The notes under the pieces: generated by a model
Seen by the model: only the letters and a program-made list of their open reading frames with translations
What the model was told of the DNA's origin: nothing
Databases searched by the model: none
From: Octopus vulgaris
Taxonomy: Eukaryota
Assembly: GCA_951406725.2 (NCBI GenBank)
Contig: OX597832.1
Location: forward strand, 16,430,001 to 16,494,000
DNA length: 64,000 bases
Direction: 5' to 3'
Part shown: positions 3,801 through 4,946 of the stretch, in pieces
Position numbering within the stretch: position 1 is the first letter of the stretch
How the letters are laid out: every line of letters starts with the position of its first letter
Program-made: the position numbers and the translations under genes

Positions 3801-4150
3801 ATATATATATATATATATATATATATATATATATATATGTATGTATGTATGTATGTTTGTATATATGTATATATACATACAAACATACATACACATATAG
3901 GCATACATATGCATATATGCACATATACATATATATACATATATGTATATATATATATATATATAACTTAGTAAATAAATGGCACAACTAAGTACCGATA
4001 TTTACTGGAAATAGCGAACGTAAAAATACGACGCTAATGTGTAGCTTCACCGCGTATATATTAGCAAAAATGCGTGTGTGCAACAAAATAGAGAAAAAAA
4101 AACCGTCTTACCTCCAGGGAGAACATCTGAAAGATGAAACACCCGGAAAA

Positions 4151-4240
4151 TGGATAATGTGGTACCTGCAGGTTTCAGGTTTTGCAAGATATGTCTCTCA
4201 CCCATATTTTACTTTACCTTCTTCAGCCAAACATATACCA
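4151..4240 (-). ncRNA. Type I hammerhead ribozyme, copy 1
   Basis: Minus strand reads UGGUAUAUGUUUGG-CUGAAGA-AGGU..long hairpin..ACCU-GAAA-CCUGCAGG-UA/CCACAUUAUCCA. Core is complete (TCTTCAG at 4220-4226, TTTC at 4173-4176 on +). Stem III is the palindrome ACCTGCAGGT; GUA cleavage predicted between 4163 and 4162. Confidence 0.85.
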
Positions 4241-4583
4241 AGACGAAATCTACGATGTTACCACATTAATACTAACACACTCGACTGAAATACGGAACGC
4301 TAACAGTACGAGAAACGGTGAAGAAGTTTAAAATATCAGTAATGCAATACAAAGTATTGCCTTCCAGTAAAAAGTAGCCCGTGAGGGAAAAATACACAAA
4401 TTAGTAAATAAAGGGCACAACTAAGTGCCGATATTTACTGGAAATAGCGAACGTAAAAATACGACGCTAATGTGTAGCTTCACCGCGTATGTATTAGCAA
4501 AAATGCGTGTGTGCAACAAAATAGAGAAAAAAAACCCGTCTTACCTCCAGGGAGAACATCTGAAAGATGAAACACCCGGAAAA

Positions 4584-4673
4584 TGGATAATGTGGTACCT
4601 GCAGGTTTCAGGTTTTGCAAGATATGTCTCTCACCCATATTTTGCTTTACCTTCTTCAGCCAAACATATACCA
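4584..4673 (-). ncRNA. Type I hammerhead ribozyme, copy 2
   Basis: Same core as copy 1 (TCTTCAG at 4653-4659). Cleavage predicted between 4596 and 4595, 433 nt from copy 1. Confidence 0.85.
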
Positions 4674-4801
4674 AGACGAAATCTACGATGTTACCACATT
4701 AATACTAACACACTCGACTGAAATACGGAACGCTAACAGTACGAGAAACGGTGAAGAAGTTTCAAAATATCAGTAATGCAATACAAAGTATTGCCTTCCA
4801 G

Positions 4802-4946
4802 TATATATATATATATATATATATATATATATATATATATATATATATATATATATATATATATATGTATGTATATATATATATGTATATATATATATAT
4901 ATATATATATATATATATATATATATATATATATATATATATATAC
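4802..4946. repeat. (TA)n microsatellite, representative of dozens of similar (TA)n/(CA)n/(TAGA)n tracts in the window
   Basis: Direct read. Comparable tracts lie near 9810-10250, 10700-11006, 12600-12830, 20606-20852, 35883-35996, 45418-45755, 56612-57030 and 59074-59252. Confidence 0.98.

Follow-up and report, generated by a model that had tools for sequence, protein, structure and literature searches.

A dispersed non-coding retrozyme of octopus and its probable copying into (TA)n tracts by a borrowed Penelope-like enzyme

The window analyzed here, a stretch of 64,000 nucleotides of octopus DNA, contains what we take, with a probability of roughly 0.6, to be one insertion of a dispersed non-coding retrozyme that was copied into (TA)n DNA by the borrowed enzyme of a Penelope-like element (PLE), probably off a ribozyme-made circle. 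The features of the locus are collected in Table 1. Positions within the unit are given as q, where q1 corresponds to 4370. Along the RNA, from 5′ to 3′, q decreases; the predicted cut is at q227/226.

Table 1. Features of the retrozyme locus (window positions).
Feature	Position	Strand	Details
Whole insertion	3959..4803	minus	1.95 units, about 844 nt; RNA-sense 3′ end ~3960-3968 in (TA)n; 5′-truncated at 4803
Type I hammerhead, unit 2	4584..4672	minus	Stem I, CUGAAGA, long stem II, GAAA, stem III, GUA; predicted cut 4596/4595
Type I hammerhead, unit 1	4151..4239	minus	Core at 4226; predicted cut 4163/4162
Predicted cut-to-cut monomer, 433 nt	4163..4595	minus	38% GC; active hammerhead fold preserved in the circle
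Conserved priming domain	4333..4444	minus	11-bp stem 4444-4434/4375-4365 closes a multiloop with priming site 1 (about 4392-4397)
Priming domain, 3′ part		minus	7-bp hairpin 4360-4344, then priming site 2 (about 4333)
(TA)n-rich target tract	3800..3965		RNA-3′ side of the insertion
(TA)n target tract	4802..4945		RNA-5′ side of the insertion
Decayed older relative, separate	3563..3790	minus	74% identity over the 3′ part; end likewise in (TA)n; hammerhead core degenerate

The insertion, its hammerheads and its relatives

A first-pass annotation of the sequence had described two near-identical units with a period of 433 between (TA)n tracts, and this was confirmed: the units (3959-4369 and 4392-4802) lie head to tail and agree at 402 of 410 aligned bases. 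As the 22 bases 4370-4391 are present only once, the array amounts to 1.95 units. The unit had also been called non-coding, which was borne out, the longest stop-free stretch being 98 codons even when the unit is rolled; LTR, PBS and PPT were not noticed either. The predicted 433-nt circle folds at −119 kcal/mol, compared with −91 ± 5 kcal/mol in 60 shuffles (z −5.7). The decayed relative sits 170 bp from the young copy, and no close copies of it were found elsewhere in the genome. A hammerhead-less family resembling it was considered and rejected, the sole other pattern match being a chance match.

The minus-strand type I hammerhead initially proposed for each unit was found, in complete form, both by folding and by descriptor, and the two predicted cuts are indeed spaced 433 nt apart. 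In unit 2, CUGAAGA occupies 4659-4653, GAAA 4609-4606 and GUA 4598-4596. Stem I is bulged, stem II (AGGU/ACCU, 4652-4649/4613-4610) is extended to about 40 nt by a long hairpin including an A-rich internal loop, and stem III is ACCUGCAGGU. The CUGANGA, GAAA and NUH core elements of type I, its three stems and the open stem I are all present. The minimum-energy fold of pieces of 97-111 nt is the active hammerhead fold, and the stability of these pieces is no better than that of shuffles (z −1.1 to +0.2). The descriptor matched only these two sites in the 64-kb window and none of 3,000 shuffled units. A covariance-model search of the minus strand, which the first-pass annotation had put forward as a check, came out negative: no Rfam hammerhead model matched in the window at the gathering score, nor in 3500-4900 at E ≤ 10, probably because of the 40-nt stem II.

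Thirteen representatives were compared, drawn from five subfamily groups with identities down to 74%. Of their 242 hammerhead cells, 98.8% are paired (15-40% in controls with slid partners), and in 8 of the 19 pairs both partners have changed (two in stem I, three of the four in stem II, two in the stem II extension and one in stem III). None of 500 shuffles gave a paired fraction or a covariation score as high; as the representatives were hand-chosen and are related, and the structure was drawn from one of them, this figure is no probability, and the per-pair counts are the evidence. In the common variants, the core differs only at the free positions N7 (A, U or C) and H17 (A or C), and core and stems are intact in 58 of 72 young arms. 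Judged from these comparisons, the hammerhead structure is under selection.

That the palindromic stem III favors cleavage as a dimer had been suggested as well. Cleavage of this kind is possible, and the dimer is required only in the two oldest subfamilies, in which stem III is a minimal ACCGGU (hairpin +6.0 kcal/mol); in younger subfamilies, stem III has 3-4 bp (−0.4 to −3.3 kcal/mol), with non-palindromic 4-bp stems in two of them. Stem III of the window copy may also close as a 3-bp hairpin, and dimer cleavage is, by these folds, possible there but not required. Dimer-type hammerheads in the terminal repeats (pLTRs) of PLEs were described by Cervera and de la Pena (2014).

The supposition of a young mobile element also held, and the family is dispersed. 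In the genome searched (2.8 Gb, 227 contigs), a 23-mer of the young subfamilies has 314 exact matches, a conserved 23-mer has 725 with up to two mismatches, and the tail hairpin of older subfamilies has 741, the reversed-pattern control giving none in each case. Full-length copies that are 97-99% identical occur on many chromosomes (best 40 of 1,139 candidates). Compared with the window unit, the subfamilies are about 98, 95, 85, 77 and 74% identical, and all are tandem and of ~430 bp; the oldest comprises 1,768 candidates, its copies being 92-96% alike. Copy lengths range from 0.05 to 2.4 units and include non-integer values. No array of more than three units was present among the matches listed (the first 100 per search), and as the first 100 of the 314 matches span 32% of the genome, no large unseen array is implied.

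Insertion ends and priming sites

The RNA-3′ end of the copies is fixed: 162 exact junctions between (TA)n and site 1 fall at q23-28. The first 100 of these, minus two with duplicated flanks, constitute the 98 insertions analyzed further (one nested case was shortened). Measured from the fixed end, their arms are 21 to 1,057 nt long, that is, randomly truncated at the 5′ end. An inverted arm is present in 32 of the 98 and begins at site 2 (q395-400) in 30 of these 32; all 27 inverted arms that match the strict motif abut (TA)n. Genome-wide, 47 exact junctions of this second type, (TA)n-site 2, were found. The two sites lie 58 nt apart, and the stretch between them (4333-4392) is the tail. Of 47 site-2 arms collected with a slightly wider motif, 21 end within 52 nt, before site 1 is reached, which is expected if both strands prime on one RNA. 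The same two ends are used by older subfamilies (84-90% and 74% identity).

The domain containing both sites has a stable fold (z −4.3 and −4.5 in two subfamilies) and hardly varies between the 98% and the 74% subfamilies; its covariation is weak, with most of the 33 pairs invariant, one changed on both sides and several G-U swaps. As mapped by these junctions, it is not the predicted ribozyme cut that sets the insertion ends but a pair of internal priming sites, which lie ~200 and ~260 nt downstream of it.

The insertions combine 5′ truncation, partial tandems, inverted arms, a tail at one end and a microsatellite target. Craig et al (2021) attribute to PLEs truncated 5′ ends, partial tandems, 5′ copies that are inverted, a tail of 30-40 bp at one end and a (TA)n bias; this tail, as shown by Frangieh et al (2024, PMC11167929), reaches from one to the other of two internal starts of reverse transcription (RT) downstream of the hammerhead. 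The original proposal of PLE-like mobilization in trans is supported, all these features occurring in insertions that contain no ORF, and we consider it very probable that the retrozyme is mobilized by a PLE enzyme.

Several individual loci deserve mention. One family copy (L018:1501-2251) is nested in the (TA)n that ends another copy, and another locus (L276) contains three near-identical 31-nt tail fragments within 260 bp. Two insertions on different chromosomes (L069 and L120) share their flanks, 99.6% identical over 2.2 kb and inside a decayed PLE ORF, and two others with the same flanks (L112 and L113) lie 61 kb apart; by their flanks, both pairs are duplicated segments.

The copied template

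A cut linear monomer serving as template would run off 204 nt from site 1. Such run-off at the ribozyme cut was looked for and not seen: 57 of the 98 arms pass the predicted cut, only 1 of 58 stops there (within q221-232), and 75 of 76 arms cross it without any indel. More than one lap is contained in 28 of the 98 arms, 10 of which pass the second cut as well. After one unit, the arms pile up, 8 of 36 stopping within q21-32 of the second lap (binomial 5e-5 if the hazard is constant; as extreme in one of 300 simulated scans). None of the 26 site-2 arms that cross this one-lap place stops there (Fisher 0.009), a control that is imperfect in that most of its 47 rows join another arm and not (TA)n; these rows stem from a slightly wider motif than the junction count, and a triplicated piece is among them. 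At the place of the one-lap stop, there is an ATA microhomology to the target, and the site is structured. Five site-2 arms reach one lap themselves (446-620 nt), none of which stops exactly there. Near the second cut, 3 of 13 arms stop within 6 nt (q222, 231 and 232), none of them at the cut itself (unadjusted p 0.012).

The laps within one insertion disagree in 2 of 96 subtype-diagnostic cells, compared with 28.7% between insertions. Elsewhere, they differ at 1.3%, the same as between insertions, and five private variants are common to the laps. The agreement at diagnostic cells and the private variants indicate that the laps were copied from one unit. Taken together with the scar-free read-through and the one-lap pile-up, this makes a circle the simplest explanation. 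Lap identity could also arise by gene conversion or template jumps, which counts against the circle, as does the failure of 8 of 9 predicted Xenopus retrozymes to cleave in vitro (Li et al, bioRxiv 10.64898/2026.07.22.740005). On balance, the pattern of ends and laps argues for a circular RNA as the probable template of the copies.

The template might instead have been an uncut linear transcript of two to three units, or cut monomers joined by template jumps, the hammerhead being kept for RNA trimming or turnover and circles being by-products. In vitro, an anole PLE mainly uses uncut RNA and can do without cleavage, so that insertion persists in hammerhead mutants (Frangieh et al, 2024, PMC11167929), and PLEs themselves form tandems (Craig et al, 2021). 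Uncut RNA would likewise give scar-free passage of the cut, and copies ending at site 2 retain both priming sites. A linear template can, however, not lengthen the array, whereas copies longer than one lap occur in every subfamily, both laps carrying the diagnostic bases of that subfamily, and no long master array was present among the matches listed. After template jumps, scars or stops would be likely at the cut; at most 1 of 76 arms has a scar there and 1 of 58 a stop, and the one-lap pile-up speaks against a linear template, too. We regard this reading as unlikely.

If a circle was copied, the life cycle could be as follows. Transcription of a two-hammerhead copy, such as that of the window, would proceed on the minus strand, probably by read-through; no promoter was found. 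The hammerheads would cut out the 433-nt monomer, which would be ligated to a circle, as in known retrozymes. A PLE protein would then bind the priming domain, nick (TA)n and start cDNA synthesis at site 1; the other strand would often be primed at site 2, 58 nt further 3′, in keeping with the ends, targets and inversions observed. RT would proceed around the circle through the sealed cut and fall off randomly, or at its own start after one lap, or sometimes continue up to 2.4 laps, which would account for the observed pattern of lengths. Two hammerheads are contained in copies of at least about 1.65 laps (8 of the 98), which could seed the next wave.

More speculatively, and with less confidence than we place in the circle itself, the family may be a viroid-sized circular RNA lineage that persisted through at least five subfamily waves without a coding partner of its own, its RNA structure making the host's PLE enzyme prime the circle at two fixed sites and roll. 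The copies would then record rolling-circle target-primed reverse transcription, and the hammerhead would have changed over time from an obligate dimer to a monomer-competent form.

Candidate PLE partner and relation to known systems

A search for GIY-YIG domains yielded 6,136 candidates, of which the best 150 were scored and 50 loci compared with the unit. Neither blastn nor a profile of 39 units detected homology of the unit to PLE terminal repeats in these 50 loci; the only likeness consists of a minimal stem III and a loosely similar multiloop. As no PLE among the 50 loci matches the unit, the enzyme driving the copies is a guess. The hammerhead-like motifs behind several PLE ORFs carry the stem III GAAACCGGT, as do the oldest subfamilies, and this common sequence may be a weak hint of origin. 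Two profile matches, older-subfamily copies near PLE ORFs, were considered as a sign of a parent PLE and rejected, as they look like separate insertions in (TA)n (one was inspected in detail).

The loci include one PLE family with a 781-codon open frame containing RT, a CX4CXXC linker and, at the C terminus, a GIY-YIG domain. Its nine copies, with a median identity of 99.1%, terminate in (TA)n, their last base being fixed, and two of the nine have a 44-nt tail. The element is as young as the subfamily of the window and shares its target, (TA)n; its domain composition fits Neptune or Nematis as defined by Craig et al (2021). Its unit (L221:134-5376, L222-L229) is 4.8 kb long, with an upstream open-looking region before the frame, promoter-like repeats with TGACGTC and CCAAT-like boxes, and a terminal repeat that contains a variant hammerhead-like motif with a UUGAUAA core. 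Hammerheads with a long stem II but unrelated to the unit were also observed near GIY-YIG loci (L199, L240:+6081, L232/L194 and L226:+6262), at L199 as two in opposite orientation; they probably represent further retrozyme or pLTR families.

These data also bear on the notion that the unit is itself the pLTR of an autonomous PLE, and the copies its 5′-truncated insertions. All insertion features are those of PLEs, the stem III GAAACCGGT of the oldest subfamilies recurs in the hammerhead-like motifs behind several PLE ORFs, and the genome searches scored the best candidates only. A pLTR would, however, have the end of an ORF upstream, and arms longer than one unit (28 of 98) enter the next unit and never an ORF; no frame of the rolled unit is free of stops over 98 codons, and the unit profile finds no PLE terminal repeat in the 50 loci. 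The earlier annotation had named linkage to a Penelope ORF as a check; none of the 98 insertions and ~70 older-subfamily loci runs into such an ORF as its terminal repeat. We, thus, hold the pLTR reading to be quite improbable. A local tandem duplication or satellite grown by unequal crossing-over, with a chance hammerhead-like motif, would agree with the missing Rfam match and the local fold not above shuffles, and local amplification of retrozyme arrays is discussed by Li et al (bioRxiv 10.64898/2026.07.22.740005), but the copies are dispersed and number in the hundreds, their two ends are fixed and their lengths non-integer; together with the hammerhead covariation and the absence of descriptor matches in 3,000 shuffles, this leaves it scarcely credible.

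Animal non-LTR retrozymes, whose circles were demonstrated in coral, mussel and axolotl, and for which PLEs were proposed as drivers, were defined by Cervera and de la Pena (2020, PMC7229834). Like these, the octopus family has short tandem units with one type I hammerhead each, a GC content under 45% and no ORF, and its predicted circle is self-paired with the hammerhead left free. It differs from them in its length (433 nt, compared with circles of 170-400 nt), its 40-nt stem II and its arrays of at most about 2.5 units instead of long ones; moreover, their circles have been detected, whereas that of the octopus unit is predicted. Mussel retrozymes lacking the usual loop contact bases are part of the same group (PMC7229834). 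As all testable features of non-LTR retrozymes except the Rfam match were found, we assign the family to this group. The sections of Cervera and de la Pena (2020) that define the group contain no analysis of insertion ends.

Vertebrate retrozymes were tied to PLEs by co-occurrence and pLTR similarity, the mechanism being left open (Li et al, 2026); no mollusc was sampled in that preprint (Li, Clavereau and Pollet, bioRxiv 10.64898/2026.07.22.740005), and the words “tail” and “target site” have no match in its text. The octopus family resembles these PLE-derived retrozymes in being non-autonomous, having a hammerhead per unit and co-occurring with PLEs, and with two units containing a complete hammerhead, the window locus corresponds to an “active retrozyme” as defined there. 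In contrast to them, no homologous pLTR was found here, and it is the anatomy of the insertions that points to PLE priming.

With PLEs (Neptune/Nematis and PAc, the Poseidon element of the anole), the family shares 5′ truncation, partial tandems, the inverted 5′ arm, a tail between two internal RT starts downstream of the hammerhead and AT-rich or (TA)n targets. Unlike autonomous PLEs, it has no RT or endonuclease ORF, and the unit repeats on itself; its tail is 58 nt long as opposed to 30-40 nt, and its hammerhead core is fully canonical. MRC1 and other non-autonomous elements of the Chlamys group (Craig et al, 2021) are likewise partners of PLEs with head-to-tail insertions. Chlamys elements lack canonical hammerheads, and their 3′ end resembles that of their autonomous partners, whereas the octopus unit has a hammerhead and no matched partner.

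Literature searches, with Repbase and Dfam outside the comparison, returned no cephalopod retrozyme family and no comparable end analysis of retrozyme insertions, and the text of an octopus repeat annotation (PMC13282606) contains neither “ribozyme” nor “retrozyme”; the family may already be catalogued. The copying of animal retrozyme circles by PLEs has been a hypothesis in the literature, to which the octopus family adds evidence at the level of insertions: two mapped priming sites, target, tail and length statistics by which circular and linear templates can be told apart. As the genome has a young and intact PLE and an in vitro assay is available for another PLE (PMC11167929), the question is directly testable with a single 433-nt RNA, and a positive outcome would define a compact RNA cassette that is written into (TA)n DNA by a PLE enzyme.

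Part of the window is contained in 20 of 24 listed sequencing runs, none of which is recorded as RNA. The unit and older subfamilies are present in contigs of four runs from four studies, which are RNA by guess and show neither strand nor ends nor a circle; the closest contig pieces have a depth of about 5-28, and the unit junction is bridged in three of the runs. Pol III transcription is argued against by runs of 5-8 T on the RNA strand. A shared contig end at 4543 was considered as a splice joint and rejected, as a difference between subfamilies 30 bases further along accounts for it.

A conserved splice-like pair was noted on the minus strand (4438-4544), with GAG/GTAAGA at 4544 and TTTCCAG at 4438, 107 nt apart; no spliced joint for this candidate intron was found in the four presumed RNA runs. 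The acceptor-like TTTCCAG is one arm of the conserved 11-bp stem, and splicing would remove this arm of the priming stem and leave an RNA that cannot be copied.

Elsewhere in the window, SINE-like sequence forms tandem repeats with a period of 184-186 at 1042-1490 (2.4 copies) and 47297-47633 (1.8 copies). Among the short frames, by eye, 23781-24224 (minus) resembles a mariner-type transposase and 14501-14938 (plus) another DNA-transposon protein; 8423-8794 (plus) and 52878-53234 (minus) resemble pieces of a LINE RT and a LINE endonuclease, respectively.
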